Assembly: GCA_964347615.1 (NCBI GenBank)
Contig: CAYFZO010000006.1
Span: 4,126 to 68,125, forward strand
Source: an uncultured Chromatiales bacterium
GTDB taxonomy: Bacteria > Pseudomonadota > Gammaproteobacteria > Poriferisulfidales > Oxydemutatoraceae
Direction of reading: 5' to 3'
Length of the DNA stretch: 64,000 nucleotides
In this document: piece by piece, positions 1-43,128 of the stretch
How positions within the stretch are numbered: the first letter of the stretch is position 1
Layout: every line of letters starts with the position of its first letter
The notes under the pieces: generated by a model
Seen by the model: only the letters and a program-made list of their open reading frames with translations
The model's database searches: none
Told to the model about the DNA's origin: nothing
Program-made: the position numbers and the translations under genes

Positions 1-8
1 AGGCGAGT

Positions 9-458
9 ATGGATTTATCAATGCCGGATTTGCTGAAGAATACCCAATCGAGTGATATTTTCGCGGTCGTCGGCTTACCCGACGTCAAACTCGAAAAGAT
101 CGAAGAGCAAACGGAAGATGGGGATGATCTTTGGCAGGTAACCTTGCACGGCCTGGACGTATTCGACCCCACCACCATGGAGCCTTCCCCCCTGAAAGGC
201 AACGACGTGCCTTGCTGGATGCTAGACACCGATTACGACGGCCAATGCTTCCGCGCCGGTCAAGTATTTTTTCCGCGCACTTCGGCTTGGGATTCAATCC
301 GCCGGGCCGTGCAGGCGGATTTTGACGAAGCCGTGTGGGAACGCCTGCAAAGCGCCGTCAGCGAGCCGTTTGTGGCGGGAGAACAAATCGCCGTCAAAGC
401 CCTTGACGATAGAGGAAACGAACTGATGGTCGTTAAGAAAGTTGCAGACGAGAAATGA
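9..458 (+). CDS. Hypothetical protein. The ORF is open to the window edge, so it may be the 3' end of a longer upstream gene. Its stop overlaps the start of the next gene.
   Basis: ORF in the same orientation as the two downstream genes and coupled to them through an ATGA overlap at 455-458. No stop codon lies between position 3 and the first ATG, so the reading frame may continue upstream of the window. No recognisable catalytic motif. Confidence 0.35.
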   Translation: MDLSMPDLLKNTQSSDIFAVVGLPDVKLEKIEEQTEDGDDLWQVTLHGLDVFDPTTMEPSPLKGNDVPCWMLDTDYDGQCFRAGQVFFPRTSAWDSIRRAVQADFDEAVWERLQSAVSEPFVAGEQIAVKALDDRGNELMVVKKVADEK

Positions 459-2107
459 AAATAACCAAAGTCATCATCCGCAACTTCAAGCGTTTCAGAG
501 ATGAAACTTTCAACCTCGACGGGCACGTCGTTGTCGCCGGTCCAAACAATTCCGGTAAAACAACACTGTTACAGGCAATCGCCACTTGGCATCTGGCACT
601 GACGCGCTGGCGGGAACTGAACAGATATCAACGGCACGGCGGCGTTTACGCAAAGGCGCCGATTGCGAGACAAGCATTTTATTCGGTGCCTTTACGCGCT
701 TTTGACTTGCTGTGGCATCAACGCAGTGCAAACAACAGAATCGAGATAGAGATCACTTTCGACGGCATCCCTGTCCCCGTTGAAATAATCAGCGACTCCA
801 GCGAACAGGTCTTGGTGCGCCCCCTCCAATCCGTGGAGCCGGCGCAACTAAAGAACCCAAGCAACTTCCCCAACCCGGTTTTTGTCCCCGCCATGACCGG
901 CTTGAGTACGGAAGAACCGGTATATCAACAGCCAAAAATCAACCAACTGCTAGGACAAGGAAAGCCCGGCGACGTATTACGCAATCTGCTGGTCGAAACC
1001 CACCAAAACCAAGACGCGTGGGACCGCCTAACAGCGTCATTGAAAAAGATGTTCGACTACGACCTTCTCCCGCCGAATACCGACGGCCCGAACATCATTG
1101 CGGAATATCAACACACCGGCAGCGGGACAAAATACGATATTGCCAACGCCGGCAGCGGCTTTTTGCAAGTGCTGATGCTGCTGACCTTCCTGAACTCCCG
1201 ACAAGGAACCGTACTCTTGCTGGATGAACCCGACGCCCACCTGCACGTGATTCTCCAAGACAGTATTTACAGCGAGCTAAGGCTCGCGGCACAAAAGAGC
1301 AAATCTCAATTGATCATTTCCACCCACTCAGAAGTCATCATAGACACGGTCGACCCGAGAGAACTATGTGTGCTGTTGGGTACTCCCAGAAAGCTGGCAA
1401 GCAACGAAGAAAAAGCCTCGTTGATATTTTCCTTATCCTCGCTTTCCAACTTGGACATCATGCTGGCACTTGAAAAGAAAAAGGTGCTTTATCTGGAAGG
1501 ACACACGGACCTCGACGTGCTGCGCGCGTGGGCTCATATCCTGGAACACCGAGCAGAAAATTTATTGGAGCAGCCGTTTTGGAAGCCCGCCGTATTTGAA
1601 ACCGCACCAGGAGCAAGAGGAATAAAGGCAGAAAATCATTTCGAGGCCCTACTGCTCGTTGAAAAAGAAATCCGCGGCGTACAAGTCATTGACCACGACG
1701 GAAATCCCGATATTCCCGACGGGAATACCGCCTTTGACGGAAAGCTGCTGAAGTTGTGCTGGAGTCGTTATGAGATCGAAAGCTATCTTGTGCATCCCGA
1801 CGTTCTCGCTCGATTCATTGCAGAAACGGTCGGGCCGACGGCGGAAATGGCGAACAGCGAAGCGATGAAAGAACTCATGCACGACTACCTGCCCAAGCAA
1901 GCCGCAGAAAACCCGATGCAGGAACACGGCTATTTCAAAAATACGAAAGCTCGTACCGACGTCTTGCCGCCGATTCTTGACAGGGCCGGACTGCCGGGTT
2001 TTCCTTACACACGTTACGCAGAAATCGCCGAAGTGATGCGGCAGGATGAAATCCACCCTGAGATAACGGAAAAACTGGATGCAATCGCTGACTATCTGGG
2101 ACTGTAA
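455..2107 (+). CDS. OLD-family nuclease (GajA-like): an N-terminal ABC-type ATPase and a C-terminal Toprim domain
   Basis: The N-terminus reads 'IIRNFKRF...VVVAGPNNSGKTTLL' (Walker A). 'LLLDEPDAHLH' is Walker B, followed by the ABC signature/H-loop-like 'ISTHSEVI'. The C-terminus has 'KKVLYLEGHTDLDVL', an E...DxD Toprim-like motif. This layout is typical of OLD/GajA/AriA-type proteins. The stop overlaps the next start. Confidence 0.75.
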   Translation: MKITKVIIRNFKRFRDETFNLDGHVVVAGPNNSGKTTLLQAIATWHLALTRWRELNRYQRHGGVYAKAPIARQAFYSVPLRAFDLLWHQRSANNRIEIEITFDGIPVPVEIISDSSEQVLVRPLQSVEPAQLKNPSNFPNPVFVPAMTGLSTEEPVYQQPKINQLLGQGKPGDVLRNLLVETHQNQDAWDRLTASLKKMFDYDLLPPNTDGPNIIAEYQHTGSGTKYDIANAGSGFLQVLMLLTFLNSRQGTVLLLDEPDAHLHVILQDSIYSELRLAAQKSKSQLIISTHSEVIIDTVDPRELCVLLGTPRKLASNEEKASLIFSLSSLSNLDIMLALEKKKVLYLEGHTDLDVLRAWAHILEHRAENLLEQPFWKPAVFETAPGARGIKAENHFEALLLVEKEIRGVQVIDHDGNPDIPDGNTAFDGKLLKLCWSRYEIESYLVHPDVLARFIAETVGPTAEMANSEAMKELMHDYLPKQAAENPMQEHGYFKNTKARTDVLPPILDRAGLPGFPYTRYAEIAEVMRQDEIHPEITEKLDAIADYLGL

Positions 2108-5100
2108 TGGCCATAAACGAAGTCGAAAACCCGATCATAAACTCGCCCTACCAAGAGCCGGCGGCGCATTGGAAAATTCACGAGCACGAACCGGCGGAAA
2201 AAATCGAGGGGCGCCGAAAACCAACTTATATATACCTGCCGCCGGGAATCCAAATAAGCAGTGAGAACGAACGTGAAGTGGGCTATGAAATAGAACTGCA
2301 ACTGGTCTCCCGGATAAGGGAACGACTCGCGGAATGGCGACCGCTCGCCTTGAACGGAAGCGGCGGTGTTACCCGAACCACGATGGATCTGCTTAACTAC
2401 TGGCGGCGAGACGGAAGAAAACACCCTTTGTTTTTTGCGCAGCTTGAGGCTGCGGAAACAATCATTTTCCTCAAAGAAGCACGCGCGGATTTCTTGCACG
2501 GGATCGACGTTCCTGAGGACGACCCCGGAGAAAACAAGCGGCAGCAGGGGTTCACCGCTTTTCAACGGCTGTGCTGCAGAATGGCAACCGGCTCCGGAAA
2601 AACGACCGTGATGGCCATGCTGGCTGCATGGAACGTGCTGAACAAGGTCAACAACAAGCGGGATCCACGGTTCTCCGACGCCATATTAATCGTTTGCCCG
2701 AATGTGACAATCCGTGACCGACTGGCCGAGCTCGACCCCAAGAGAGGTGAAGCCAGCATTTATCGGACCAGCGACCTCGTCCCGCCCGCGTTCATGCCTC
2801 AATTGGCGCAGGGGCGAGTCCTGACGGTGAATTGGCACGTCTTTGAACCACGCGGCTCCCAACTCGGGAGCAAGGTGGTGAAGACCGGGCAACCCGTGTC
2901 CATCCGAGAGACCGTATTGATTCGCGGTGAAACCACCACCGCGCGCGGCAGACGATACATGACCGAAGACGATCTTAGGCAGAAAGAATCTCTCGGGTTC
3001 TTAACGATTATTCCCGGCTCGGAAAAAAAAGACAAGGACGGCAATCTTGAAAAGGTGGAGATAGAAGCGAAAAAATACGTCGAGTCCGACGCTGCATTGG
3101 TGCAACGTGTCTTGGGAAATGAGCTCGGGACGCGCCGCAAGATCCTGGTATTCAACGACGAGGCGCATCACGCATACCGCCTGCGTGGAGACGACACTGA
3201 AAACACATCAGAAGACGAGCTTATCGGTGATGAAGAGGTAGCAAGAAACTATTACAAGGAAGCCACGGTCTGGGTGGACGGTTTGGACCGAATACATAAA
3301 CTTCGGAACATCAGTTTTTGCGTTGATTTTTCGGCAACGCCGTATTTTCTGGGCAACGCGGGCAAGGACACCAACCGCATATTCCCGTGGACGGTAAGCA
3401 ACTTCGATTTACAAGACGCGATTGAAGCCGGGCTGGTCAAGATTCCTCAACTCGCGGTGCGAGATTCTTCCGGAAGCAACGTCCCGGGATACTTTAATAT
3501 CTGGAAATGGATTTTGCCTCAGCTTACATCTACCGAGCGCGGCGGAAAAAAAGGCGAAGTCAAACCGGAAGCGATTCTCAAATATGCACACACACCGATT
3601 GCCATGCTCGGCGGAATGTGGGAAGCCCTCAGGCAGGAAATGATGAACTCAGACGACCCCCGCCCGCCGGTTTTAATCATTGTCTGTAAAACCCGGAAGC
3701 TGGCGAAAGTCGTGTATGAATGGATAGCCGAAGACCAGCCGCCGAACGCCGCCATTCCGAGTGCGCAGCTGGCCGGACTGCGTAACGACGACGAGCATCA
3801 AAATACGATCTGCGTCTATTCAGACGTGCAAGACGAGATTGAAAGCGGTAACGCCAAGAGCGATGAAAACCGTTGGATGCGCCACACGCTGGACACCATC
3901 GGCAAAAGAGAGTGGCCGACAGACGGTCAGAGGCGACCGCAATACCCCGATGGTTTTGAAGAACTCGCGGAGAAAATGAGGCGCGATAAACACCCGCCGG
4001 GACGGGACGTGCGCTGCATCGTCAGCGTGGGCATGCTCACTGAAGGGTGGGATTGCAACACGGTGACACACATCATCGGCTTGCGCCCGTTCATGTCGCA
4101 ACTTTTGTGCGAGCAAGTGATCGGACGCGGTCTGCGGCGCATTTCTTATGACGTCGGCGAAGACGGGCTGATGAACGAAGAAATCGCCAAGGTGTTCGGC
4201 GTGCCGTTGTCCGCTTTCACCGTTAAAACCTCTAACGGTGGCGGTAAGAAGAAACTGAAGCGCCACCATATTTACGCACTGCCCCAGAAAGAAAACTATG
4301 AGATCCGCTTTCCGCGCGTTGAAGGCTATCGGCAGGTTATCCGAAACCGCCTCGTCTGCGACGTGCAGAAAGTTGCTGAACTAGAAATCGATCCGCAGAA
4401 AATTCCAAAAGAAGTAGAAATGAAAGCAGGGTTATCCAACAACTTTGGTCGTCTTTCTCTTCATGGACCGGGGAAAATCAACCAGGCGGGCTTAGATGAA
4501 TTCCGACAAGAAATGCGGCTGCAACAAAGGTTTTATCAGATGACGACCAGGTTGGCAAAGGATTATTCCCAAAATGAGGGATGCCGATTGCCGGTGGGAA
4601 TTCTGTTTCTTCAACTCTACGAAATCGTACAGGAATATTTTGACGAAAGAGTTGTCGCTATTGAACCTGCAGACAAAAAAGACGCCTTTTTGTCTCCGTA
4701 TTACGGGTACGTGATTGAACGTCTGTTGGAGACCATTCGTCCTGAAGAATCTTCTGGCGAAGCACCTGAGCTGCCACGCTATGAACGCATGAGGGACCAC
4801 GGGTCCACCGCGGAAGTCGATTTCTACACTCGCCGCAAACCTTACTCGGTGTCCAAAAGCCATATAAACGCCGTCGTGCCGGACACCAAGAAGCTTGAGC
4901 AATCAGCTGCGTGGTATCTAGACCGACACCCGAAAGTTTTCTCATTCGCAAAAAATGAAGGAATGGGTTTCGGCATTCCTTATTTGCACGACGGCACGGT
5001 TCACGATTACATGCCTGACTTCCTTGTTCGTCTAGACGGCGAAAACGGCGAAAATCGCTATTTGATTCTTGAGACCAAAGGATACGATGAACTGAAAGAA

Positions 5101-5223
5101 ATCAAACGAAACGCCGCAGAACGTTGGGTCGCCGCGGTTAACGCCGACGGCAAATACGGGCAATGGCACTACGAAATGATTGCCAAAGCCGAAGAAGTAA
5201 ACGGTGTTCTGGATAAGATGTAA
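2107..5223 (+). CDS. SF2 helicase-nuclease of the type III restriction Res-subunit type: a DEAH helicase core with a C-terminal PD-(D/E)xK endonuclease
   Basis: The N-terminus 'NPIINSPYQEP..HW' is characteristic of Res-type proteins. Helicase motifs are present: motif I 'ATGSGKT', motif Ia 'IVCPN', motif II 'FNDEAHH' and motif VI 'QVIGRGLRR'. The C-terminus has 'PDF...RYLILETKG', a PD...ExK nuclease motif. Confidence 0.75.
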   Translation: MAINEVENPIINSPYQEPAAHWKIHEHEPAEKIEGRRKPTYIYLPPGIQISSENEREVGYEIELQLVSRIRERLAEWRPLALNGSGGVTRTTMDLLNYWRRDGRKHPLFFAQLEAAETIIFLKEARADFLHGIDVPEDDPGENKRQQGFTAFQRLCCRMATGSGKTTVMAMLAAWNVLNKVNNKRDPRFSDAILIVCPNVTIRDRLAELDPKRGEASIYRTSDLVPPAFMPQLAQGRVLTVNWHVFEPRGSQLGSKVVKTGQPVSIRETVLIRGETTTARGRRYMTEDDLRQKESLGFLTIIPGSEKKDKDGNLEKVEIEAKKYVESDAALVQRVLGNELGTRRKILVFNDEAHHAYRLRGDDTENTSEDELIGDEEVARNYYKEATVWVDGLDRIHKLRNISFCVDFSATPYFLGNAGKDTNRIFPWTVSNFDLQDAIEAGLVKIPQLAVRDSSGSNVPGYFNIWKWILPQLTSTERGGKKGEVKPEAILKYAHTPIAMLGGMWEALRQEMMNSDDPRPPVLIIVCKTRKLAKVVYEWIAEDQPPNAAIPSAQLAGLRNDDEHQNTICVYSDVQDEIESGNAKSDENRWMRHTLDTIGKREWPTDGQRRPQYPDGFEELAEKMRRDKHPPGRDVRCIVSVGMLTEGWDCNTVTHIIGLRPFMSQLLCEQVIGRGLRRISYDVGEDGLMNEEIAKVFGVPLSAFTVKTSNGGGKKKLKRHHIYALPQKENYEIRFPRVEGYRQVIRNRLVCDVQKVAELEIDPQKIPKEVEMKAGLSNNFGRLSLHGPGKINQAGLDEFRQEMRLQQRFYQMTTRLAKDYSQNEGCRLPVGILFLQLYEIVQEYFDERVVAIEPADKKDAFLSPYYGYVIERLLETIRPEESSGEAPELPRYERMRDHGSTAEVDFYTRRKPYSVSKSHINAVVPDTKKLEQSAAWYLDRHPKVFSFAKNEGMGFGIPYLHDGTVHDYMPDFLVRLDGENGENRYLILETKGYDELKEIKRNAAERWVAAVNADGKYGQWHYEMIAKAEEVNGVLDKM

Positions 5224-5283
5224 CCAATTTCAGTCTTTCCCTTATCTTCTTTATGGTTACGGAGAACCCAAGAAGCAATCACC

Positions 5284-6222
5284 ATGCCAATAACTGATGT
5301 ATTTTCAAAGCGACAGAAGAAGCTTCGTGGGGAAGTTCCTGATGTGTACGTATATGATGATTTGCCACACCCACTTAGGATACAAATTGTCCGAGCCTGG
5401 GAATACTCGCTTAAGCGGCAAGAAGACAGCGGGGATGTTTCTGATTTACTACAAAGAGCTGCTCAAGAAACGATCAGAATCTTGTGTGATGAGTATGGGG
5501 TATTTGAATTGCCTGGAACTGGATACGAATATGAGGATGATTTTTCTAGGCTCTGCAACTTCTTCTTTCAAGAAGAAGATATAGAAAAAGCCCTTGACCC
5601 TGTGGAGCTACTTCCTGATGTTTTTTATCAACGATACCGAGATGAAGAACATTTTACTTCCGACCCGCCTAAACAGTCGTCGGCTAGATTGTTAGAAGAG
5701 CTAAACGCTAGATTCAAGGAGCACGGTGTAGGGTATCGATTTAGTGACGGAAAGATAATTCGTATCAGCTCAGAATTCACTCATTCAGAAATTGTAAAAC
5801 CTGCTTTACAGCTGCTTCATGATCAATCTTATTCCGGTGCTCAAAAAGAATTTTGGAAAGCACACGAGCATTATCGCAAGGGCGACTTCCCAGGAGTGCT
5901 TGTTGAGTGTCATAAAGCTTTCGAGAGTGTTATGAAAGTAATCTGTGAAAAAAGAGGGTGGGATTTCGGAAAAAATCCTAAAGCAAGCAAATTGATTGAA
6001 ACATGTTTCGAAAAAAAGTTAATTCCAGAGTTTTGGAAAAGTCATTATGAGTCATTAGAAAACTTTCTTAAAACCGGTACTCCTACTGCACGCAACAAAT
6101 TAGGCGCCCACGGGAGCGGCTCAACTTCTCCTCCAGTGCCAGATTATCTCGTTGCCTACACGCTACATATAACTGCCTCCACAATCATTTTCCTTGTAGA
6201 AGCAGAAAAAAATCTGTCATGA
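5284..6222 (+). CDS. Hypothetical protein with a C-terminal HEPN-like Rx5H motif (Abi-like candidate)
   Basis: AT-rich ORF sitting in a defence context. 'TARNKLGAHGSG' fits the HEPN Rx4-6H catalytic motif and lies in the C-terminal region. No other family signature was recognised. Confidence 0.4.
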   Translation: MPITDVFSKRQKKLRGEVPDVYVYDDLPHPLRIQIVRAWEYSLKRQEDSGDVSDLLQRAAQETIRILCDEYGVFELPGTGYEYEDDFSRLCNFFFQEEDIEKALDPVELLPDVFYQRYRDEEHFTSDPPKQSSARLLEELNARFKEHGVGYRFSDGKIIRISSEFTHSEIVKPALQLLHDQSYSGAQKEFWKAHEHYRKGDFPGVLVECHKAFESVMKVICEKRGWDFGKNPKASKLIETCFEKKLIPEFWKSHYESLENFLKTGTPTARNKLGAHGSGSTSPPVPDYLVAYTLHITASTIIFLVEAEKNLS

Positions 6223-6237
6223 ACTGATATAAGCCTA

Positions 6238-6531
6238 TTGCTTCTTCTTTTACTTACCCAAGCCAGCCGGCAGCTTTCGACTGCGGCGCCGCGTGGCTCT
6301 CGATTACGCTACAAGCGGGACGCTTCGGCCTCTACTACCCACGGCATGGCCGGTATCAAACGCGACGAGGTGTACCCCGCGCTCGGCATAGACCCCGAGA
6401 AGTATCAGGTGATTTGCGGGTTTGTGCTCGGGGTGTTGGATACGAAAGAGAACCTGAATCAGGACTTTGTCGAGGGCGAGCAGCCGTCGGGACGGGATGC
6501 GCTGGATGTGATTTGGATGAGGGAGGAGTGA
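6238..6531 (+). CDS. Short ORF of uncertain reality between the HEPN-like gene and the distal end of the CRISPR array. It may be a gene remnant.
   Basis: 97-aa ORF with a Leu-run N-terminus and no recognisable motif. It lies in the array trailer region. Confidence 0.15.
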   Translation: MLLLLLTQASRQLSTAAPRGSRLRYKRDASASTTHGMAGIKRDEVYPALGIDPEKYQVICGFVLGVLDTKENLNQDFVEGEQPSGRDALDVIWMREE

Positions 6532-6558
6532 GCATAAGCTTAGTTGAACGGATTTGTA

Positions 6559-8858
6559 TGTGCCAATGAGGCCGGTGCAACGTTGCGCCGGATGTGAAGA
6601 CGCCGATCGTTCTTTACGGTGCGCCTGGCTTGCTTTAATGAAGCCAGCGCAACGGTGCGCCGGATGTGTCAGCGGGGTGTCCATCTCATCGCCGGGCGTG
6701 CCGTCCCTTCAATGAAGCCGCGCAACGTTGCACCGGATATCTCATGCGTCGGCACCTGCTGATCCATGTACCAGTCACTTCAATGAAGCCACCGCAACGT
6801 TACGTCGGATGTTTGGACAACTATAACTTACACTATTTTTTACAAGCTGGCTTCAATGAAGCCGGCGCAATGTTGCGCCAGATTTAGCGGGCGGAGTATC
6901 CGCCGGATCTCGCCCTTCGTACTTCAATGAAGCCGGCGCAATGTTGCGCCGGATGTCCAGCTTCGGGGCGACCTATACCGGCTACAACTTCCCCCTTCAA
7001 TGAAGCCAGCGCAACGTTACGCCGGATTTCTTGGACCGTCAATTTCCGACGCCGAGAGTGCCCCGAGCCTTCAATGAAGCCGGCGCAACGTTACGCCGGA
7101 TTTCACGTACAAACTTTTGCCTGCACCCGGTGCCCCAGTTATCCTTCAATGAAGCCGGCGCAACGTTGCGCCGGATTTGACATTTACCATCACTGACGCT
7201 ACCGGCACGATTACCCTTCAATGAAGCCAGCGCAACGTTGTGCCGGATTTCAAGCTTAGGATAAGCTCTTTTAATCGAGTGCGCTGCCTTCAATGAAGCT
7301 GGCGCAACGTTGCGCCGAATGTGCCTCGTCTGTACAAGGCGTTCTTCGATGGTCAGCCGCTTCAATAAGGCCGGCGCAATATTACGCCGGATGTGTTTCT
7401 TGATTGTTATCGTGTCCCCGACCTTGCCCTCCCTTTAATGAAGCCAGCGCAACATTACGCCGGATGTTTGGACAACTGTAACTTACACTATTTTTACAAG
7501 TTGGCTTCAATGAAGCCGGCGCAACGTTGCGCCGGATTTACCGCAACTCCCTGTAAATCGTCTTGCGCGTCGCCTTGCTTCAATGAAGCCGGCGCAACGT
7601 TGCGCCGGATTTCCAAGCAACTCTCGCGGCCCTGCTCGACGGGCAGGAGCCGCTTCAATGAAGCCGGCGCAACGTTGCGCCGGATTTCCGACGTAAACGG
7701 ATTTGCCCTTGAGTTTTTGGTAGCTTCAATGAAGCCGGCGCAACGTTGCGCCGGATTTCATGTCCTCGGCGAGGACGGCGGATCGAAATGACGGCGCTTC
7801 AATGAAGCCGGCGCAACGTTGCGCCGGATTTGCGTGCACGGACTTGTTGGGTTGGCAAGATTCCTGAGCTTCAATGAAGCCGGCGCAACGTTGCGCCGGA
7901 TTTAGCAGGCCAAGAGAACCTATCGGTCGACCTCGGTATGCTTCAATGAAGCCGGCGCAACGTTGCGCCGGATTTCTCCAGCACCACGCCGAACCACACC
8001 GAGCCTCGGTAGCGCTTCAATGAAGCCGGCGCAACGTTGCGCCGGATTTGAAGATAAACGATCTGAACTGGACATCGATACCCATGCTTCAATGAAGCCG
8101 GCGCAACGTTGCGCCGGATTTCCCTCTTTCCTGACACGTGAAAACCTTGTCATCATTCTGCTTCAATGAAGCCGGCGCAACGTTGCGCCGGATTTTCCCC
8201 GACGTCAACTCCGCTACCGCGTAGATTCCCGGGCTTCAATGAAGCCGGCGCAACGTTGCGCCGGATTTCGCTGTGCCCGCAACGCTCGCTTGCAGTCCCG
8301 CGTTGCGCTTCAATGAAGCCGGCGCAACGTTGCGCCGGATTTCTGGTATAAGCTGCTGCCATGGCTCGTAGGATGCGTAACGCTTCAATGAAGCCGGCGC
8401 AACGTTGCGCCGGATTTGTCGTTGCCGGCGGCGTCATAGGCGGTGAGCTTGTAGCTTCAATGAAGCCGGCGCAACGTTGCGCCGGATTTGGTGGCCGGTG
8501 CGGTTATCCACTGCATCAGGGATGAGCGGCTTCAATGAAGCCGGCGCAACGTTGCGCCGGATTTTGCTCCAGCCCTATCTTGTATTTGATGAGCTCCTGG
8601 CGCTTCAATGAAGCCGGCGCAACGTTGCGCCGGATTTGAGTTCCAGTCTCTCACGGCCTTGAGGGGCAAGGGGGGCTTCAATGAAGCCGGCGCAACGTTG
8701 CGCCGGATTTCCTGTCGTTGTGTCCGTGAGTGACGCCCCTGACGCTCTGCTTCAATGAAGCCGGCGCAACGTTGCGCCGGATTTCATCGCAGCGGCCCGA
8801 GGGGTTACAGCGAGGATCTGGCGCTTCAATGAAGCCGGCGCAACGTTGCGCCGGATTT
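6559..8858 (-). CRISPR. CRISPR array of about 32 repeats of 36 bp with 35-38 bp spacers. The leader is at the high-coordinate end, next to cas2, and the array is transcribed on the minus strand.
   Basis: The repeat GCTTCAATGAAGCCGGCGCAACGTTGCGCCGGATTT recurs with a period of about 73 bp. On the minus strand it reads AAATCCGGCGCAACGTTGCGCCGGCTTCATTGAAGC. It has a perfect internal palindrome, CCGGCGCAACG/CGTTGCGCCGG, and ends in ATTGAAGC, which is the typical 3' handle orientation. Repeats are perfect from about 7,505 to 8,858 and progressively degenerate from 7,433 down to 6,559. Confidence 0.95.
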
Positions 8859-9080
8859 AGCCGCCCCTGATTCCTTTCCACGGCGCGGCTCATTCTGACA
8901 TACTTCGAGACCTGCCACGACACGCTCACGGTTTTCAACTCCTCGGCTGGCGCATCCAGCGCGGTGGTGATTAACTCGTTGCAACGCAAGAGGAAAACTT
9001 GATGCGAGCGCTCGCCGTGATTTGCCCGCCGCTGAAGCCCTCGCGGCGGATGCAGCAACGCGCCCTTCCCTCGGGAACGG
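8859..9080 (-). promoter_or_regulatory. Putative CRISPR leader between the cas2 stop and the first (newest) repeat
   Basis: This unique 222-bp segment lies between the 3' end of cas2 (9,081) and the terminal perfect repeat. It has the same orientation as the cas operon and the array. It is unusually GC-rich for a leader. Confidence 0.45.
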
Positions 9081-9374
9081 CTATACGATGGTCGCTTGTC
9101 GGGTCGGTGCTTCATAGGTCTTTCCCAGACTCTCGACACGCGGGTCAACTTTCTCGGCTGGCCCCAGGTCGAGAATCAAGATGTGATCCTCCGCCGGTTG
9201 AATCAGTTTCTCCAGGCGCGTGAGCATCTCGACGCGCCGCCTGGCCGTCAGCCGGCATTGAAACACCGACAGCTGCAACCAGTAGCCGTATCCTTTCATC
9301 GACTTGAACACCTGCCGCCAGCGTTTCGGTTCGGCGATGTCGTAAGTAACAATGTAAAGATGCTCGTTGGCCAT
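9081..9374 (-). CDS. cas2: Cas2
   Basis: 97-aa protein beginning 'HLYIVTYDIAEPKRWRQVFKSMKGYGYWLQLSVFQC', which is the typical Cas2 N-terminal beta-strand/Asp motif. It lies immediately downstream of cas4-cas1 and next to the array. Confidence 0.9.
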   Translation of the reverse strand: MANEHLYIVTYDIAEPKRWRQVFKSMKGYGYWLQLSVFQCRLTARRRVEMLTRLEKLIQPAEDHILILDLGPAEKVDPRVESLGKTYEAPTRQATIV

Positions 9375-9380
9375 GATACA

Positions 9381-11105
9381 TCACCGCGGAACGTAGTGCG
9401 GGTAAGTCGGAATCTCTCCTTGCAGATGGCGTGCAAGCAGTCGTGTCTGCACTTCGATCAGGCGGCGCATGGAGACACGATAACCGAAAAGCGGATGCGT
9501 TGTTTCCTGTTCCATGCGACGTTCGAAAGCGGCAATGAGCGCCTTGTTCCTGCCGGGCTTCAGCGAACAGGCGGGGCCGTTGAAAACGAAGTCGCTCGGC
9601 TTGACCTCGCCGTTGTTGACGGCTTGGATGACGCAGGAGTCGGCGACAATCGGGCGGAACGGCTCCATCAGGTCAAGCGACAGGGCCGGACGGCCGTGAC
9701 GCGGGCGGTGATAGAAGCCCATGTAGGGGTCGAGCCCCACGGACGAGATCGTCGCGGTGAACGCGCGTACCAGCAGAGCGTAAGCGAGCGACAGCATCGC
9801 ATTCACGGGGTCGGTGGGCGGGCGGCGGTTGCGGGTTGAAAAGGAAAACGTCGCCAGGCCTTCCTTGGCTTCCGTCGAGAGCATGTTCTCAAAACGGGCG
9901 AAGTAAATCGACGCCGCCTCACCTTCCATGCCGAGCAGCTGCTGGGCATCCCGGGCGCGGGACGTCCCCTGAGCGATCTGCTTCAACCGGTTCAGATCCT
10001 CGTTCTTGGCGCTCGTGTCCCGATCGCTTCGCCAGTTCCGCCGCAACATGGTGCGGGAGTTCCTGACTTTCGCCGCGACCAGGTCACGCGAGAAAGCGAG
10101 ACAGCGACGCTCGTCGAAGGCGGTCCGATACTGCGCCTCACGCACGGCGACGTTACCGTTCCCGGTGCTGACGGTGTGCCCGAGAAACCAACCCCCGGTG
10201 GAGAACCACGCCACCGGAATCCCGTCGCGCATCAGCTCGTGCAAGGCGGGCGTGGTCACGGAAATCGGGCCGAACAACGCAACCTGGGAAACCTCGATCA
10301 AGGGAACCTCGACCACTTCCTCCTTGGTCTCGACAACCAGCCGGTCGCCGCTCTTGCGTAAGTACGCGCCGGGCGATTGCACGTAAAGAGGAAGAGCCGG
10401 ATCGTCGGAAGGATTGAGCGGACGCGGCGGATGTCCCTTGCGGAACAGGTTGGTCTCATCCGGCAGACAGATGCCGGCGAGAGAGCAACGAGGACATTTG
10501 GGGCTGTTCTCAAGCGGCGGCGGACGCTTCCCGGAAACGGCGGCGGCGCGCAAACCGGAAATCGCCTCCAGCGTACGGGCGCGCAGCTCATCGCTGAGCG
10601 CAACCGGGACTTTCTCGCGTGAGCCTGCGTACCAGAGCGCTCCCTGCTTCACCTTGTAACCGTTGTCCTCCAGGATCATCGCCTGAGCGCAAACCTGAAC
10701 CCGCTCCGGCTCATACGCACCCGCATCCACGTGGGGCCGCTTGCCCTTCTTGAAGTCCACGGGTATCACGGCGCCTCCATCGGCCTCCACGACGTCCATC
10801 TTGGCGATGACGCCGAGACGTTCGGACGACAGCGTAACGGAACGCGCCTGCGCCATATCTCCATCGAGGTCATCGGGCAGGGGCAGACGCCCCTCTCCCT
10901 TGTCAACCCGGGTATGGGTGCGCTTCCCCTCGGCGGTGTCCCCGCTCTCGGCCCACTCGCCCTCGACCCACTCCAGGTAGGCCAGCCGAGGGCAGTAGAT
11001 CCACTCGTTGATCATCCGCGCAGGCACCAGCGAGGCGTCGGCGTCTGCAGAAGGCGGGGGAATTGCGAGGGAGAATTGGTTGTCGGGGTGTTTCCGTTTA
11101 GACAT
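9381..11105 (-). CDS. cas4-cas1: Cas4-Cas1 fusion protein
   Basis: The N-terminal half has a RecB-like nuclease motif ('EWIYCPRLAYLEW') and a Cys cluster ('CPRCSLAGIC'), which is Cas4-like. The C-terminal half is Cas1-like ('GFYHRPRHGRPALSLDLMEPFRPIVADS'). A Cas4-Cas1 fusion is a hallmark of type I-U/I-G and V-B loci. Confidence 0.88.
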   Translation of the reverse strand: MSKRKHPDNQFSLAIPPPSADADASLVPARMINEWIYCPRLAYLEWVEGEWAESGDTAEGKRTHTRVDKGEGRLPLPDDLDGDMAQARSVTLSSERLGVIAKMDVVEADGGAVIPVDFKKGKRPHVDAGAYEPERVQVCAQAMILEDNGYKVKQGALWYAGSREKVPVALSDELRARTLEAISGLRAAAVSGKRPPPLENSPKCPRCSLAGICLPDETNLFRKGHPPRPLNPSDDPALPLYVQSPGAYLRKSGDRLVVETKEEVVEVPLIEVSQVALFGPISVTTPALHELMRDGIPVAWFSTGGWFLGHTVSTGNGNVAVREAQYRTAFDERRCLAFSRDLVAAKVRNSRTMLRRNWRSDRDTSAKNEDLNRLKQIAQGTSRARDAQQLLGMEGEAASIYFARFENMLSTEAKEGLATFSFSTRNRRPPTDPVNAMLSLAYALLVRAFTATISSVGLDPYMGFYHRPRHGRPALSLDLMEPFRPIVADSCVIQAVNNGEVKPSDFVFNGPACSLKPGRNKALIAAFERRMEQETTHPLFGYRVSMRRLIEVQTRLLARHLQGEIPTYPHYVPR

Positions 11106-11222
11106 ACAGATTTTCTACTACCGTTAAAGCTCCGCCTACAAAGTAAATTTTCAAGGAAGTGAATTTAGGCTAGAAATACCCTCTAGCTGAAATTTGTATG
11201 ACTAACCTGTTAGTAAGATTGG

Positions 11223-13415
11223 TCAACTCACGCCAACAAACAACCCACCACCAAAATGCATTGTTCGGCCCAAAAGAATTGGTCCTTTTACGGCAAGAGA
11301 GAATGTTAAGCGGGCATAGACTTCAAGTCCACCACGAGGACCATGAATAATACGAAGGCACTCTACCTTAGGCTTCGGTAACCCATGGCGACCAAGTTCT
11401 ACAAGTATGTCCTCTGCTACCGCCGTCTCAGGTTTTGTACGCTTGGGGTGACGCGTAGGGCGATAAGGTGTCAAGCTTTCCCAAACTCTTGCTGGGCGAA
11501 AAAGCGGATCTTCGAGGGAAACTGGCATACGGACAAGTTGCAGACGTCCTGCAGAACCAGCACGAAGCTCACTGAACTCTGCTAAAGCATCTTCTAAAAG
11601 CCCCAAGCATTCCTTGTATTCGTCACTCGGTTTATGGTGCTCCATTATGTGAGGGGAAATAACTAGTAGTCGCTGACGAGGCAAATCAGCCAAGAAAGCA
11701 ATATGTCTGTGGTTGCCACCACGCAAGGGAGAGCCATTCATTTTATGGCCTGTGAAGAATGGATGTAAAGAAGCCTGTCCTCTCTTAGCTTGTACCTGAG
11801 CCATAACAGCACGCCGCAAAGCACGGGTCAGAACACTCGGAATTTTCTTTCTCAGCCCGCTAACGATAGCAAAGGCATGTATGCTACAAACCTCATCTTT
11901 ATTCGGGACCATTAACCCAAGTCCCTGAAAACGTCCATCTCCTAGAATAAGCGGCCCTGACACAGGTTTCTGGAAAGTAAGTTTCACATGCCAAAGGGCG
12001 TGCTTCGAAAACCGTGTCCCCACAGCAAATGCTTCAGCTTTTGTTCCCTGAACCGCATAAGGTTCTCGTTGAACCTGTACAGCATTTGGCCTGATATTGA
12101 TATTTGCATGACGAAGCGCCGAAAACACGGCGCGACAAGCAGAATCTTCCTCAAGAATTCGCTCTTTCCCTCCCTTTCTTTCATCAGCCAACTTGTCAGG
12201 ATCAATTCGTCGGCGCTGAATGGGAAGCGCTAGAGGAGTCTCTGAACGCCAAATCGATGCCTCATGATAGTAACGCTCAAACATAGTATGGTTTGTCGCT
12301 GGAACCAACATTGGTAAGGTACCTTTCACTCCATCGGATTTGCTTTCTTCTGCAAGTGGGGAAATTCCATTGAAAGCCCATTCGAGATCATCCACACGAA
12401 GCGGACAATTAGCTGGAATTTCAACGGCAATACGGCGAATTGCTCGATCTCCCTGATATCTAAGTGTCGGAACAGCAAAAACACGAACTCGCCGAAAAGC
12501 ATCAAGACTGCTAGCGTTACGACCGATAAGGAATTTTTCTATAGCCTCCTTTTTATCTGGCAACGAATCAATAAGTTTTTTAGCGGCAAACCGAATCACT
12601 CGCTGAACCAAAAAGCCAGCCTGAGCAGGATCGAAAGATTTTAATTGACTTTTTGTCAGAGAACGTATTTCATAGTGGAGTCGAACTGGCGGAGTGTTGT
12701 AGCGTATTTGCACAAATCTTGGCTGATTCGGAAACATCAATTCAGCTTTTCCTTGATTCGGCGAAGCTCTCAAACGATTAAGAAATGCCTCATAGCGAGA
12801 CTGCAAACTATCAAGCGAACCTTCTGTGGGAGTAGCATAGCCACCTTCCCCTTCCCCTATCGGGCGATAAATTTGGCCGCCGTGCGCCGAAATCATTGCC
12901 GCAGTATCTTCTTCCGTTAAAACTTGGGTCTCTGCCCAAGCAAAATCAACACCTCTCCCAAGTTGATATAAATGATTGGCTATCGCTTTCGTGCAATCCA
13001 TCATTTTTAGATTGTCTGTCTCTTCCCAAAGATAAATAACAGGGATTTCAGAATTGAATAACCACGACTGAGTGCGTTTAATGACTAGTGATTCTTTATA
13101 GGCCTTTTTATAGGCCTCTTTCGCACAGCGCGTGCTTTCTCGCGCGAGCTCTAGCGCAAGCAAGGTATCTAAATCATTATTCGGCATATAAGGATTAGAC
13201 GCTTTCTGTCGTTTAGCAAAGGGGGCTAAAATTGTTGGTGGCTTTTGGCGTTCCAGCCAAAGAAGAGCTTCCCTATCGTTATTATCTATTCTTCGCCCGA
13301 TAGAAGCAGCTGCAACAAATGCCTGAAAGAGCCGTGCAGGAGCAGGTGGCCAATCACCGGATCCGTGGTAGCGCCCCTCGTGAAATCTTATATGAACAGC
13401 AAGATTTTGTAACAT
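11223..13415 (-). CDS. csb2: Csb2-like protein (Cas5/Cas6-family fusion of the GSU0054 group). The Cas8u2/Csx17 alternative is not excluded.
   Basis: The N-terminal motif 'GRYHGSGDWPPAPARLFQAFVAA' resembles the conserved start of GSU0054/Csb2-family proteins, as far as I recall. It sits in the effector-module position between cas7 and cas4-cas1. The assignment rests on memory of the family motif, not a search. Confidence 0.5.
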   Translation of the reverse strand: MLQNLAVHIRFHEGRYHGSGDWPPAPARLFQAFVAAASIGRRIDNNDREALLWLERQKPPTILAPFAKRQKASNPYMPNNDLDTLLALELARESTRCAKEAYKKAYKESLVIKRTQSWLFNSEIPVIYLWEETDNLKMMDCTKAIANHLYQLGRGVDFAWAETQVLTEEDTAAMISAHGGQIYRPIGEGEGGYATPTEGSLDSLQSRYEAFLNRLRASPNQGKAELMFPNQPRFVQIRYNTPPVRLHYEIRSLTKSQLKSFDPAQAGFLVQRVIRFAAKKLIDSLPDKKEAIEKFLIGRNASSLDAFRRVRVFAVPTLRYQGDRAIRRIAVEIPANCPLRVDDLEWAFNGISPLAEESKSDGVKGTLPMLVPATNHTMFERYYHEASIWRSETPLALPIQRRRIDPDKLADERKGGKERILEEDSACRAVFSALRHANINIRPNAVQVQREPYAVQGTKAEAFAVGTRFSKHALWHVKLTFQKPVSGPLILGDGRFQGLGLMVPNKDEVCSIHAFAIVSGLRKKIPSVLTRALRRAVMAQVQAKRGQASLHPFFTGHKMNGSPLRGGNHRHIAFLADLPRQRLLVISPHIMEHHKPSDEYKECLGLLEDALAEFSELRAGSAGRLQLVRMPVSLEDPLFRPARVWESLTPYRPTRHPKRTKPETAVAEDILVELGRHGLPKPKVECLRIIHGPRGGLEVYARLTFSLAVKGPILLGRTMHFGGGLFVGVS

Positions 13416-13423
13416 AATTACGC

Positions 13424-14530
13424 TTATTGCTTATTTTTTTTACCTTTCCCTTTTTTGCTTTTATCCTCTTTTGCTTCCTCTACATCTTTCTTTGCTCGAC
13501 CTTTATCAAATTCAACTGACGGAGCTTTTTTCTCAACTCCAAAAAGTTCAGCTTTTTCTTTTGCGTAACTCAGTGCATCTTGATGAGAAAGGGTGATTTT
13601 TTTTCTTGTCCCATCTCGATAAACAAGTTCGCAAACTTCCTTGTCCTTGTCCTTACAGGCAGAGTCGAGTACTAGTAAACATCCAGACCGCAAAAAACCG
13701 TCGAAAGGCACTGTGGTCGAAACCAATGCAAGTCCTAGAATATAGGTACGAAGTGCGTCTACATTCTCCCCTCTCAAACGACGTAACGCTATCAAGTTTA
13801 AAGTAACGTCACGTCTGATTTCTTCAGCGATTATTCCACCGTGCTTCCCTACTGCGGGTACAGGAACATAACCACGCCGGGCAAGATCTCCCTCCTTCTC
13901 TTTACGCTCTTCTTCCGAAAAAACGCCTAGCTCATCATAGCTCAAAGAAGGAAAATACTGTGCTGACCGAGTAAGCTCGCTCACTCCAAACGCACGAATA
14001 ACCGATTGAACCAAACGAGGAAGTTTTGCCTGAGTATCACGGCTGTCCCAAACACCGAAAACTAGTGAAGTTGGAGCAAGCTTAGCAAGCTTTGTTACAT
14101 CGCCTTCATCCAGCAAGCTCTTAAAAGCAGCTTGTGCTCGTTCCTTAAGATCAGTGCTACGAATAACTGCATCACCTAACCTATGATGCGCCTCTAGAAT
14201 AGAAATAAATTTATCGCCCTCATAAGTAATCTCTATTTGAGGCACGAGATTTCGATATGGAGCTTGTGAGAATATTGGTTCGATTCGATTAGCCTGTGAA
14301 CCTACGCTATCGATAGATGCAACTTTTGTTCCGTCTTCTAGCGTATCAATGTTATAACCAGAATCTTTCCCAGGTGCAGACGCGTAAGTGGCAGGAAAAA
14401 TAGGTGCCCCTCGCCCTTCAACCGGAACTAACATTTGGCGTAAATGGAGTGCAACTGGTGCATTCTCACTATCGACATGCACCCAACTGTCACACTCTAG
14501 GCTCGTATTATTCCTATTTTTAGATGTCAT
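13424..14530 (-). CDS. csb1: Cas7 (Csb1/GSU0053-like)
   Basis: 368-aa protein in the backbone position of a I-U/I-G operon. 'PIFPATYASAPG...GYNID' resembles the Csb1 family. It is translationally coupled, with a 4-bp overlap, to the upstream gene. Confidence 0.55.
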   Translation of the reverse strand: MTSKNRNNTSLECDSWVHVDSENAPVALHLRQMLVPVEGRGAPIFPATYASAPGKDSGYNIDTLEDGTKVASIDSVGSQANRIEPIFSQAPYRNLVPQIEITYEGDKFISILEAHHRLGDAVIRSTDLKERAQAAFKSLLDEGDVTKLAKLAPTSLVFGVWDSRDTQAKLPRLVQSVIRAFGVSELTRSAQYFPSLSYDELGVFSEEERKEKEGDLARRGYVPVPAVGKHGGIIAEEIRRDVTLNLIALRRLRGENVDALRTYILGLALVSTTVPFDGFLRSGCLLVLDSACKDKDKEVCELVYRDGTRKKITLSHQDALSYAKEKAELFGVEKKAPSVEFDKGRAKKDVEEAKEDKSKKGKGKKNKQ

Positions 14531-15426
14531 TTTTTAGTCTCCTCAATAACGGTGGTTATCATGCGTATCTTGCTTCCTTGTCCAGGTTTATCAAGGAGCA
14601 TTCGGAAGCGACGAAGCAGCATACCAGAAATAAATGTTTTTTTTGCACCGAGAGCAGCCCGTAGAAAAACCGGCGGAAAAAGTCGCCCCTTATGCTTATT
14701 CATCGGTACCGCATAACGATACTCTAACCTTTTTACTCGCAGTGGCCTTGCATACCTCATCCCAATTGCGGCAAGCAACTCAACCACAGGGTAGCCGATG
14801 ATACTAATCTTTTTTTCCTGTTTCTTTGGAGTAAAACCAACGTCAATTTGAATATAACTCCTCCGGCAATCAAAGCCAAAGCTATTGGATTGCGGCGTAG
14901 AAAAAGCAAAAGGTTCATCCACTGCAACTTCTTTCCAATGCGACAGTATCAGCTGCTGCGCATCATGAGCAAGCATCGCACCGGGATAGCCGCACATCCC
15001 CGACCAAAATTTTGCTTTATCCCGCCTCGTTTCATCCCCCCAATAGTCAACGCAGATTTTAATATTATCTGCAGATAATTCTATTGGAAGAGTTGCTGGT
15101 TTCGTCGGATTGGGAAAAGGAAAAACGTTTTCTTGCCCGCGTTCTCTTTCCACAACCCATTTATTTTTCCATTTTTTTTGGCTTTCTGAGGTCCAGTTGG
15201 ACGGTTCAAGAACTTTAATTTTGGCATCTTTCAGAAAGCGAAGCGCACTTTCAACAGGGTCTTTATCGCCAGCCGTGCGTAAGCAAAATCGAGTGGCCGG
15301 GAAATCGGACCGATCAAATCCTCCTTCTGTATCACCCATCAGCACATCAGCTATCTCGACCAAACCGAGACAAGCAAAAACCTGACCAGGGTTAAATAAA
15401 TCTACTGGTATTTTTGACTCAGCCAC
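14527..15426 (-). CDS. Cas-associated protein in the large-subunit (Cas8u2/Csx17) position. It is unusually short at 299 aa and its identity is uncertain.
   Basis: Placement between cas3 and cas7, with overlapping stop/start on both sides. No motif recognised. Confidence 0.3.
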   Translation of the reverse strand: MAESKIPVDLFNPGQVFACLGLVEIADVLMGDTEGGFDRSDFPATRFCLRTAGDKDPVESALRFLKDAKIKVLEPSNWTSESQKKWKNKWVVERERGQENVFPFPNPTKPATLPIELSADNIKICVDYWGDETRRDKAKFWSGMCGYPGAMLAHDAQQLILSHWKEVAVDEPFAFSTPQSNSFGFDCRRSYIQIDVGFTPKKQEKKISIIGYPVVELLAAIGMRYARPLRVKRLEYRYAVPMNKHKGRLFPPVFLRAALGAKKTFISGMLLRRFRMLLDKPGQGSKIRMITTVIEETKK

Positions 15427-29140: not shown

Positions 29141-30430
29141 ATGGCAAAAATAGAAGGGTTCCGCATAAAAAACTTCAGGGTGCTGCAAGACGTTACTCTC
29201 GGCAGACTGTGGAACCAACGAGAGGTTAAACCCCTTAGCCCCCTAACAGCGGTTATCGGTAAAAACGGTGTCGGAAAAAGCAACTTGTTTGACGCATTTG
29301 GGTTTTTAGCTGATTGTTTAAAGCTTGGTGTTGAAGAAGCCTGTGATGCTCGAGGGCGTGGTGGCTTTGAAAAGATATTGAGCCGAGGAAAAGAAGGACC
29401 GATTGAATTCGTAGTCTATTACAAAGAAAGCGGAAACTCGCGGCCGATTACTTACGAGCTATCCGTTGATCTTGACGGTACCGGCCGCCCTTACGTTTCC
29501 AAAGAACACCTCCGACAACGGCGCACAGGAGAAAAATATGGTCAGCCACTTTCGTTTCTCGCGCTTAATGACGGAAAAGGCATTGCGTGGAAAGGCGACC
29601 AAGGAGGGTTTTCAATAGATGAAGAGCAGGCAAGAAGCAATTTGGTTTTAGCGCATATTAAAAAAAGCCGCGGAATTAGAGAAGAACCTAAAGATACGGA
29701 AGACGTGGAATTGTCAGACAACAGAGAACTAGGCATTACCACGCTCGGCTCCCTAAAGCAGCATCCGAGAATTTCCGCCTTTCGAAAATTCATTCAGAGC
29801 TGGCACCTCAGCTATTTTACGCCGGATGCGGCACGTAGCCTTCCGCTTGCGGGCCCGCAAAAACATCTTAATGCTCACGGCGATAACCTTGGAAACGTGG
29901 TGCAGTTTATGGAACGTGAACACCCCGGGAAATTTCAGAATATCTTAGACCGCATCGCCAAGAAAATACCGGGAATAGACAAAATCGACACGGAAAAAAC
30001 CGAAGATAACCGCATACTTCTTCGATTCAACGACAAAGGGTTTGATGATCCGTTTTACGCTCAGCAAATGTCCGATGGAACACTGAAGATATTTACATAT
30101 CTGCTGATGCTTGAACACCCGGAACCGCCGCCGTTTCTTTGCATCGAGGAACCGGAAAACGGCTTGTATCACAAGCTGCTTGAAACGCTTGCTCAGGAGT
30201 TCAGAGAGCACGCCACCGGTCACGGAAGCAGGTCTCAGATTTTTGTTACAACGCACCAGCCTTACTTTGTTAACGCTCTGGAGCCAGAAGAGGTATGGGT
30301 GCTGGAAAAAAACGCCAGCGGATTCTCCGACGTCAAGCGCGCGAGTGACGATGAAACCGTGAAGAACATGGTGTCGGAAGGACTGCCCTTAGGGGGACTT
30401 TGGTACAGTGATTATTTAGATGCGAGGTAG
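29141..30430 (+). CDS. ABC-type AAA ATPase (AAA_15/AAA_21-like; OLD/AriA/AbiL-type defence ATPase)
   Basis: 'RIKNFRVL' is an SMC-like N-terminal strand. Walker A is 'VIGKNGVGKSNL', Walker B/D-loop is 'LCIEEPENGLYHKL', and the H-loop is 'VTTHQP'. Confidence 0.75.
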   Translation: MAKIEGFRIKNFRVLQDVTLGRLWNQREVKPLSPLTAVIGKNGVGKSNLFDAFGFLADCLKLGVEEACDARGRGGFEKILSRGKEGPIEFVVYYKESGNSRPITYELSVDLDGTGRPYVSKEHLRQRRTGEKYGQPLSFLALNDGKGIAWKGDQGGFSIDEEQARSNLVLAHIKKSRGIREEPKDTEDVELSDNRELGITTLGSLKQHPRISAFRKFIQSWHLSYFTPDAARSLPLAGPQKHLNAHGDNLGNVVQFMEREHPGKFQNILDRIAKKIPGIDKIDTEKTEDNRILLRFNDKGFDDPFYAQQMSDGTLKIFTYLLMLEHPEPPPFLCIEEPENGLYHKLLETLAQEFREHATGHGSRSQIFVTTHQPYFVNALEPEEVWVLEKNASGFSDVKRASDDETVKNMVSEGLPLGGLWYSDYLDAR

Positions 30431-40558: not shown

Positions 40559-40596
40559 ATAGAAAGCCAAGAGATCAGATGAAGCTGTTTCGGAAC

Positions 40597-42229: not shown

Positions 42230-42252
42230 CTTCGAACTTCGAAAAGCGCCCC

Positions 42253-42658: not shown

Positions 42659-42664
42659 CGATCC

Positions 42665-43123: not shown

Positions 43124-43128
43124 GATAA

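Follow-up and report, generated by a model that had tools for sequence, protein, structure and literature searches.

The window analysed here is a stretch of 64,000 nucleotides from contig CAYFZO010000006.1 of an uncultured Chromatiales bacterium. Its first 5223 positions hold three co-oriented open reading frames (ORFs) on the (+) strand: the 3' end of a gene for the modification subunit (Mod) of a restriction-modification (R-M) system of type III, a gene for a 550-amino-acid (aa) protein predicted to join an ATP-binding cassette (ABC) ATPase to a Toprim nuclease domain (hereafter ATPase-Toprim), and a gene for the restriction subunit (Res). With high confidence, we regard them as a single operon, in which an OLD-family nuclease gene is embedded at the mod-res junction of a type III R-M system. 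The genes and their motifs are listed below; invariance in ATPase-Toprim refers to 56 homologues and in Res to an alignment of four sequences.

1-458 (+): 3' end of mod, last 151 codons (type III DNA methyltransferase), matching positions 824-983 of 983 of the PADLOC MTase_III model PDLC03632, E 5.6e-14
455-2107 (+): 550-aa OLD-family protein, ABC ATPase (residues 1 to ~318) and predicted Toprim/helical nuclease domain (~320-550)
539-562 (+): Walker A, G29-P-N-N-S-G-K35-T36; G29, P30, N31, G34, K35 and T36 invariant
1223-1228 (+): Walker B D257 and catalytic E258; D257, P259, D260 and H262 invariant, E258 in at least 90%
near Walker B (+): ABC signature G233-S-G235 and H-loop H291; G233, S234, G235 and H291 invariant
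1496-1510 (+): putative Toprim glutamate E348 and D352, motif YLEGHTD; both at least 90% conserved, Y346 invariant
1691-1699 (+): putative Toprim DxD motif, D413-H-D415; D413 and D415 invariant, at the end of model strand E407-412
1772-1780 (+): E440-I-E442 within the motif W-x-R-Y-E-I-E-x-Y-L; W436, R438, Y439, E442, Y444 and L445 invariant, E440 at least 90%
2107-5223 (+): res, 1,038-aa type III restriction subunit of the BPTD_3080 family (NCBIfam NF046055), superfamily 2 (SF2) helicase with a C-terminal PD-(D/E)xK nuclease
2581-2607 (+): Res helicase motif I, M159-ATGSGKTT-167; invariant
3157-3168 (+): Res DEAH box, D351-H354; invariant
5017-5079 (+): Res nuclease core P-D971...E989-T-K991; D971, E989 and K991 invariant, aligned to RE_endonuc and to residues 882-953 of 986 of the PRK15483 type III endonuclease

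The three genes and the fold of the middle protein

The stop codon of mod, TGA (456-458), overlaps the ATG of the ATPase-Toprim gene (455-457) in the junction ATGA (455-458), and the TAA of the latter (2105-2107) has one base in common with the ATG of res (2107-2109) in the junction TAATG (2105-2109), so that the middle gene is translationally coupled on both sides. Upstream, the frame 3-458 is stop-free back to the window edge. The counts of promoter-like and terminator-like sites in 1-6600 were not above the shuffled expectation, which fits one transcription unit for mod, ATPase-Toprim and res; an internal promoter or terminator splitting the three genes was rejected on the same scans. An earlier note, made from the sequence alone, had given these ORF coordinates, the translational coupling on both sides and the open upstream frame as found here. 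It had also described the downstream gene as a ResIII-type SF2 helicase with a C-terminal PD...ExK nuclease, and had raised the possibility that the upstream ORF is the 3' end of a Mod gene, in which case an OLD nuclease gene would lie between the mod and res genes of a type III locus; the results that follow bear out each of these points.

Two public metagenome contigs encode exactly this 550-aa protein, and L001 (100% identical), one of the two, reaches further upstream. On this contig mod is complete: it encodes an 881-aa protein that ends at the ATPase start, matches Pfam N6_N4_Mtase (PF01555), and matches the PADLOC MTase_III model PDLC03632 over its full length with E 1.7e-133; DPPY and FxGxG-type motifs are recognisable in its sequence. 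The 1,038-aa Res scored 978.8 bits against NCBIfam NF046055, 'BPTD_3080 family restriction endonuclease' (cutoff 800), and was aligned over residues 6-1037. It matches ResIII, with weak matches to RE_endonuc and to a TnsA-like N-terminal domain, and carries SF2 motifs I (ATGSGKTT, 160-167), II (DEAH, 351-354) and VI (QxxGRGxRR, 670-678), all of them invariant in the four-sequence alignment; no UvrD-type domain was detected in it. Plasmid homologues of this Res are annotated either as 'type III restriction-modification enzyme, R/helicase subunit' or as 'BPTD_3080 family'. Judged by homology, the flanking genes are a complete type III R-M system made up of Mod and a BPTD_3080-family Res; the two-gene type III order, with mod immediately before res, is not the case here, as a 1.65-kb gene lies between them.

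The N-terminal part of the protein encoded by this gene (residues 1 to ~310) is an ABC ATPase, matched by AAA_15 (4e-24) and AAA_21 (5e-22), with weaker profile matches to PtuA, GajA, OLD and AriA. The PADLOC GajA models match with E 4.5e-20 at best, and the match ends at residue 356 of 550, before the DxD motif at 413-415. For residues 300-550, Pfam (E up to 10), NCBIfam and PADLOC gave nothing usable, with AriAB at E 0.038 as the sole exception; Pfam OLD-like_TOPRIM and DUF4435 did not match the 550-aa protein, and a 22-sequence profile of the nuclease domain returned chance matches only from all PDB sequences. Since profile methods are blind to this domain, its assignment as Toprim rests on structure instead.

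A model of the full 550-aa protein, obtained with AlphaFold from an alignment of the 56 sequences (55-77% identity), had a pLDDT score (predicted local distance difference test) of 86.5. Its best match in the PDB was the full-length OLD protein of Thermus scotoductus, TsOLD (6p74, E 3.7e-11), with PtuA and GajA next (E about 1e-10). The C-terminal 233 residues modelled alone reached pLDDT 94.2, and a Foldseek search with this model placed Class 2 OLD catalytic regions at the top (E 5e-3, template modelling score (TM) 0.44-0.50), followed by AriB; the nearest solved structure to the domain varies with the method, and identity to solved OLD proteins is ~14%. Counterparts of the residues that define the Toprim and OLD two-metal site, including BpOLD E400/E404 (PMC6755086), are conserved in the 56 homologues: E348, D352, G389, D413-x-D415 and E440-x-E442. 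The spacing of E348 and D352 is that of BpOLD E400/E404, and E440 and E442 are candidate second-metal ligands, which we infer by analogy with BpOLD T506/E508.

Two sub-threshold sequence bridges lead towards known domains: a 37%-identical paralogue matches DUF4435 (E 7.4e-5), and a 28%-identical viral relative matches OLD-like_TOPRIM (E 0.015). In a search of 1.84 billion proteins, the nuclease-domain profile retrieved 729 cluster representatives (E <= 1e-3); the full-length ones measure ~540-610 aa and carry the domain C-terminally. The C-terminal fold is accordingly modelled as an OLD/AriB-type Toprim plus helical domain. The earlier note had called the protein an ATPase-Toprim member of the OLD family; the AAA_15 and AAA_21 hidden Markov models (HMMs), the predicted structure and the fold search agree with this, and the Toprim residues are present on alignment, but no HMM supports the Toprim part. 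Because this domain is missed by Pfam, NCBIfam and PADLOC, such genes are now labelled 'AAA family ATPase' only.

The mod-res junction and its cargo

To place the arrangement among its relatives, a Res alignment was scanned against one genome per species, which gave 52 loci, 48 of them assessable; many of the closest were metagenome-assembled genomes of sponge symbionts, which makes such an organism the probable source of the window. In 48/48 loci with both gene ends visible, mod precedes res in the same orientation, and the two genes are between 3 bp and 5.9 kb apart. The junction is occupied by an intact homologue of the 550-aa protein in 18 of the 48 loci and by a remnant of it in two; 17 hold other genes or spacers of >400 bp, and the remaining 11 are without cargo (nine with abutting genes, two with spacers of <400 bp). 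Plasmids give the same picture: on Mycobacterium avium plasmid pS2b mod overlaps res and the junction is empty, and on Planktothrix plasmid p3 a 354-aa hypothetical protein occupies the slot.

The other cargo is diverse. It includes pairs of AAA_21 and DUF4276 proteins that match PADLOC HEC-01 with E values of up to 1e-60 (in L003, L027 and L042), a 490-aa AAA_15 protein with a 160-aa partner, a 639-aa OLD-like protein, NACHT with Mrr_cat, Schlafen/AlbA_2 with HATPase_c_4, DUF6731, MNT-HEPN, PIN, Fic, and DUF5131 with a GMT-wHTH partner. For the slot proteins of L018 (166 aa), L039 (319 aa), L048 (183 aa) and L051 (271 aa), Pfam gave no match. A single junction can contain a stack of as many as three modules (L015, L003), and some junctions hold decayed cargo between otherwise intact mod and res genes, as in the following loci:

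L015, 4139-10001: stacked cargo of a 914-aa ABC ATPase, a Schlafen/AlbA_2-HATPase_c_4 protein and ATPase-Toprim
L003, 8000-13499: stacked cargo of an AAA_15 gene, ATPase-Toprim and a HEC-01 pair
L004, 7731-11650: stacked cargo of a 757-aa Mrr_cat-NACHT protein and ATPase-Toprim
L013, 7418-8407: decayed ATPase-Toprim, a 329-aa N-terminal fragment; mod and res otherwise intact
L058, 8932-9984: 353-residue ATPase-Toprim remnant; mod and res otherwise intact
L012, 7932-10001: 2-kb junction without a convincing ORF; mod and res otherwise intact

The junction thus has the marks of an embedding site, namely same-strand flanks from one system that exists without cargo, and variable content between them: the mod-res junction of BPTD_3080-family R-M systems is a variable cargo slot. 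As the R-M system occurs with an empty junction or with unrelated cargo, ATPase-Toprim behaves as embedded cargo and not as a core subunit, and the gene content of these loci clearly indicates that the R-M family functions without it. The junction is also a rich site for 'guilt-by-embedding', given its HEC-01, NACHT-Mrr, Schlafen-like, DUF6731 and unannotated proteins.

Linkage to Res and the proposed role

In a metagenome scan with the ATPase alignment, >479 related stretches were found, of which the best 80 were kept. A Res homologue is next downstream in 57 of the 65 copies whose flank on that side spans at least 400 bp (88%), at a distance of 0-59 bp in 53 of those 57. Upstream, Mod was found in 55 of the 67 copies with upstream sequence, ending 3-45 bp before the ATPase gene with one exception; wherever a trio locus could be assessed Mod was present, and ATPase-Toprim with Res but without Mod was never seen there. 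Among 38 complete trios, the pairwise distances of ATPase-Toprim and Res are correlated (r = 0.857, Mantel p = 0.001) about as closely as those of Mod and Res (r = 0.877), with ATPase-Toprim evolving somewhat faster. In 17 of the 18 loci of the Res scan with an intact copy, ATPase-Toprim is the gene adjoining res, also when several cargo genes share the slot. Its presence and absence on a 42-taxon Res tree imply at least six gains or losses, including losses within the ATPase-rich clade (L012, L016).

A search of 72,556 plasmids at E 1e-20 yielded no copy, and the relatives in IMG/VR viral contigs do not exceed 34% identity; on these grounds, a plasmid-borne or phage-borne origin was rejected. 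The exceptions to this linkage are mostly, not solely, the most divergent copies (37-42% identity) and lie in other defence contexts. One paralogue of 37-39% identity sits in a Hma-like locus between a DUF1156 methylase and a HEPN_Swt1-DUF499 protein (L132, 2371-11133), another directly after an MmeI-type R-M enzyme (L135, 3211-7725), and a further divergent copy after an AAA_11/12 helicase-DUF559 protein; one copy (L131) adjoins housekeeping genes. The L132 and L135 contexts suggest that the wider ATPase-Toprim family specialises in modification-based hosts. The near-exclusive linkage, fixed position, coupling and co-divergence exceed what is found in ordinary embedding and point to a functional tie with the Res enzyme.

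We propose, by analogy with better-known relatives, that ATPase-Toprim may be a latent, ATP-regulated nuclease that acts as a second-layer 'guardian' when the type III enzyme is defeated, and we see the case for this role as evenly balanced. Mod and Res would restrict unmethylated DNA in the ordinary type III manner, and the ATPase-Toprim protein, co-produced with them through translational coupling, would be kept latent as an auto-inhibited oligomer, a second layer belonging to this particular R-M enzyme. If a phage neutralised restriction with a DNA mimic or other anti-restriction protein, or perturbed the Mod-Res complex, the ABC ATPase would sense the event and license the Toprim site (E348/D352/D413/D415/E440/E442) for cutting. 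The substrate might be transfer RNA (tRNA), as for AriB and P2 Old, or DNA, as for GajA and Class 1 OLD, and the outcome would be growth arrest or abortive infection.

Several points weigh against this proposal. The latency of the protein, its trigger, its substrate and its outcome are all read across from other systems, and the relatives from which trigger, substrate and phenotype are extrapolated share <17% identity in the nuclease domain. Co-divergence and tight linkage would equally be expected of a true third subunit. Furthermore, PARIS needs no resident R-M system (PMC9122126), and embedding need not mean functional dependence. Finally, HEC-01, a related embedded ATPase-Toprim pair, gave no defence in the one published test (bioRxiv 10.1101/2024.01.29.577857).

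Among the alternatives, an autonomous, Class 1-like OLD abortive-infection nuclease survives best: it would be lodged at the junction, where it gains only co-expression and co-transfer, with no functional cross-talk, and would respond to some general sign of infection, for example inhibited RecBCD, DNA ends or depleted nucleotides. That the junction accepts many unrelated defence and toxin-antitoxin modules fits such an element well, as do the distant paralogues beside housekeeping genes (L131) and other systems, the activity of PARIS without any R-M system (PMC9122126), and the ability of Class 1 OLD proteins to work as single genes (PMC12392090). A free module, however, should scatter and show incongruent distances, whereas the co-divergence with Res equals that of Mod and Res, the same Res family lies immediately downstream in 88% of copies, and the plasmid and IMG/VR searches returned no copy and relatives of at most 34% identity, respectively. 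We consider autonomy unlikely, if still a serious competitor.

An integral accessory subunit, with ATPase-Toprim in the Mod-Res complex aiding cleavage or post-cleavage degradation, or regulating Res, would make a three-component enzyme. Translational coupling at both junctions, the position fixed directly before res, and the near-exclusive linkage with co-divergence would all be expected of it. On the other hand, Mod and Res are complete by themselves, with helicase motifs I, II and VI and a separate PD-(D/E)xK core in Res; the slot is empty in 11/48 loci and on plasmids; and the tree requires at least six gains or losses, with losses in L012 and L016 and with remnants in L013 and L058 beside an intact res. 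Such a subunit is improbable on this evidence.

The Gabija-like pair with a non-canonical helicase that the earlier note had put forward, i.e. a methylation-independent two-gene system of an OLD protein and an SF2 helicase-nuclease replacing GajB, has the order of an OLD-like gene followed by an overlapping helicase gene and the PADLOC GajA matches (best E 4.5e-20) in its favour, but it can hardly be correct, because those matches cover little beyond the ATPase region and end at residue 356 before the DxD, GajB is a UvrD-type superfamily 1 (SF1) helicase (PMC12392090) and the partner here SF2, and this partner is an above-cutoff type III Res equivalog with a cognate Mod in 55/67 assessable loci, which with Mod forms a complete R-M system in many genomes without the ATPase, the reverse case of ATPase and Res without Mod never being seen where assessable.

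If the guardian role that we favour is true, it would be the first guardian known for type III R-M. The mod-res junction would in addition be a slot to mine for new defence genes. A widespread, co-evolving mod-OLD-res trio would offer a compact system in which to study how an ABC ATPase-Toprim protein senses a specific restriction failure, and a way to learn whether nucleases of this kind act on tRNA or on DNA.

The window holds further defence genes. At 5284-6222 (+), 61 bp after res, lies a gene for a 312-aa AbiJ_NTD4 and DUF7014/HEPN protein (NCBIfam STM4504/CBY_0614 family, 315 bits; PADLOC candidate PDC-S32). It was rejected as a fourth component, since it adjoins res only in two assemblies of the same contig and is not conserved beside res in other loci; it is a separate defence gene. 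On the (-) strand, a CRISPR array at ~6544-8860, in which a 36-nt repeat (GCTTCAATGAAGCCGGCGCAACGTTGCGCCGGATTT) occurs about 32 times and degenerates toward 6544, is followed at 9081-18136 by a type I-G/I-U system with cas2, a cas4-cas1 fusion, GSU0054, GSU0053, a 299-aa gene and cas3. At 29141-31097 (+), a gene for a 429-aa AAA_21 protein (E 2e-46) overlaps a 225-aa ORF; this second ABC ATPase module may be a further ATPase-effector defence pair. At 31929-51024 (+) there is a DISARM-like set, composed of an SNF2 helicase of 1,085 aa, a methylase of the Eco57I type with 1,791 aa, and a DEAD helicase of 1,998 aa that carries MZB/DUF1998 and, at its C-terminus, Peptidase_S24; the set is interrupted by genes at 40.6-45 kb, including one for a ThiF-family protein (43617-44996), and may be a second embedding case in the window.

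Comparison with known systems

Four synteny classes have been described for the OLD family: isolated, with GajB, with a retron, and split as PARIS (PMC12392090). The proteins of Class 1 (P2 Old and the OLD proteins of Thermus scotoductus and Vibrio cholerae) have in common with ATPase-Toprim a single chain with an N-terminal ABC ATPase and a C-terminal Toprim/helical domain, and the acidic set E...D, DxD and ExE found here parallels the two-metal site of BpOLD and TsOLD. Class 1, however, is defined by an isolated gene (PMC12392090), whereas the family described here is fixed between mod and res and co-diverges with them. The reported activities within Class 1 differ: P2 Old is reported to cut tRNA anticodon arms (PMC12445682), and a Class 1 OLD from Vibrio nicks DNA (PMC12392090). 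Gabija (Class 2) pairs its OLD protein with GajB, a UvrD-like SF1 helicase; the partner found here is instead a type III Res of the SF2 group, which has a nuclease of its own and comes with a cognate Mod.

PARIS (Class 4) consists of the ABC ATPase AriA and the DUF4435 Toprim protein AriB, sometimes fused as AriAB (PMC9122126); it responds to the anti-restriction protein Ocr by cutting tRNA-Lys (PMC12707154; PMC9122126). The detection rule of Rousset et al. for PARIS asks for an AAA_15/AAA_21 ATPase and a DUF4435 Toprim, encoded in two genes or in one (PMC9122126). The present protein has the ATPase and no DUF4435 match, its 37%-identical paralogue has a sub-threshold one, the C-terminal domain reaches AriAB only at E 0.038, and the ATPase is structurally closer to PtuA, OLD and GajA than to AriA. 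PARIS is also mobile (P4 satellites, phages) and independent of R-M (PMC9122126), whereas the present family was not found on plasmids and has only distant relatives in viral contigs. The permissive fused-PARIS profile of DefenseFinder (threshold 20 bits) might nevertheless already label such proteins.

The embedding of ABC ATPase-Toprim genes in modification-based defences is already known. The BREX locus StySA contains a nested pair of an ATPase and a DUF4435 protein (PMC9009780), and the HEC-04 ABC ATPase-TOPRIM fusion, embedded in Hma, gave phage defence that depended on Walker A and on the Toprim E/D/D residues (bioRxiv 10.1101/2024.01.29.577857). HEC-04 equals ATPase-Toprim in domain architecture; identity with it was rejected, since PADLOC has no model that reaches into the C-terminal domain, and HEC-04 is absent from the best 25 matches of the Hma-embedded L132 paralogue. 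HEC-01 (ATPase and DUF4276/Toprim) is tied to the present locus in another way, as its pairs themselves are found in the mod-res slot of relatives. As far as a search for terms in that paper shows, the embedded defences surveyed by Payne et al. 2024 had Hma, BREX, DISARM and type I R-M as hosts, with 'type III' used only for DRT type III, so the BPTD_3080-family mod-res junction is apparently absent from the host systems mined there; their cargo is typically variable, whereas ATPase-Toprim co-diverges with its host.

The classic R-M guardian is PrrC, an ABC-type NTPase nuclease encoded in the type Ic EcoprrI locus and released when T4 Stp inhibits restriction (PMC12707154). It resembles the present case in that a gene for an ABC-type NTPase-nuclease is nested in an R-M operon; the EcoprrI host, however, is type I, whereas the host here is type III, and the nuclease of PrrC is not Toprim. 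Physical masking has been shown for PrrC; for ATPase-Toprim, an association with the R-M complex is suggested only indirectly, by coupling, linkage and co-divergence.

The arrangement is at the same time common, with the >479 related metagenome stretches, and undescribed in the literature searched, in both of which respects the earlier note's view of it as unusual has to be read: searches on type III R-M with an embedded ATPase and on 'BPTD_3080' gave nothing relevant, which, the coverage of the literature being incomplete, does not prove novelty. To the best of our knowledge, R-M guardians have so far been recognised for type I and BREX-type systems, in the form of PrrC, PARIS and the StySA-nested pair, and we know of no back-up described for type III enzymes. 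None of the four OLD synteny classes describes a fusion fixed between a type III mod and res. We therefore put forward, tentatively and as a possibility that goes beyond the data above, that a Toprim nuclease dedicated to one type III R-M family forms a fifth OLD synteny class, which would be inherited as a three-gene unit, dock on Mod/Res and fire on their inhibition, the mod-res junction being an unrecognised integration slot.

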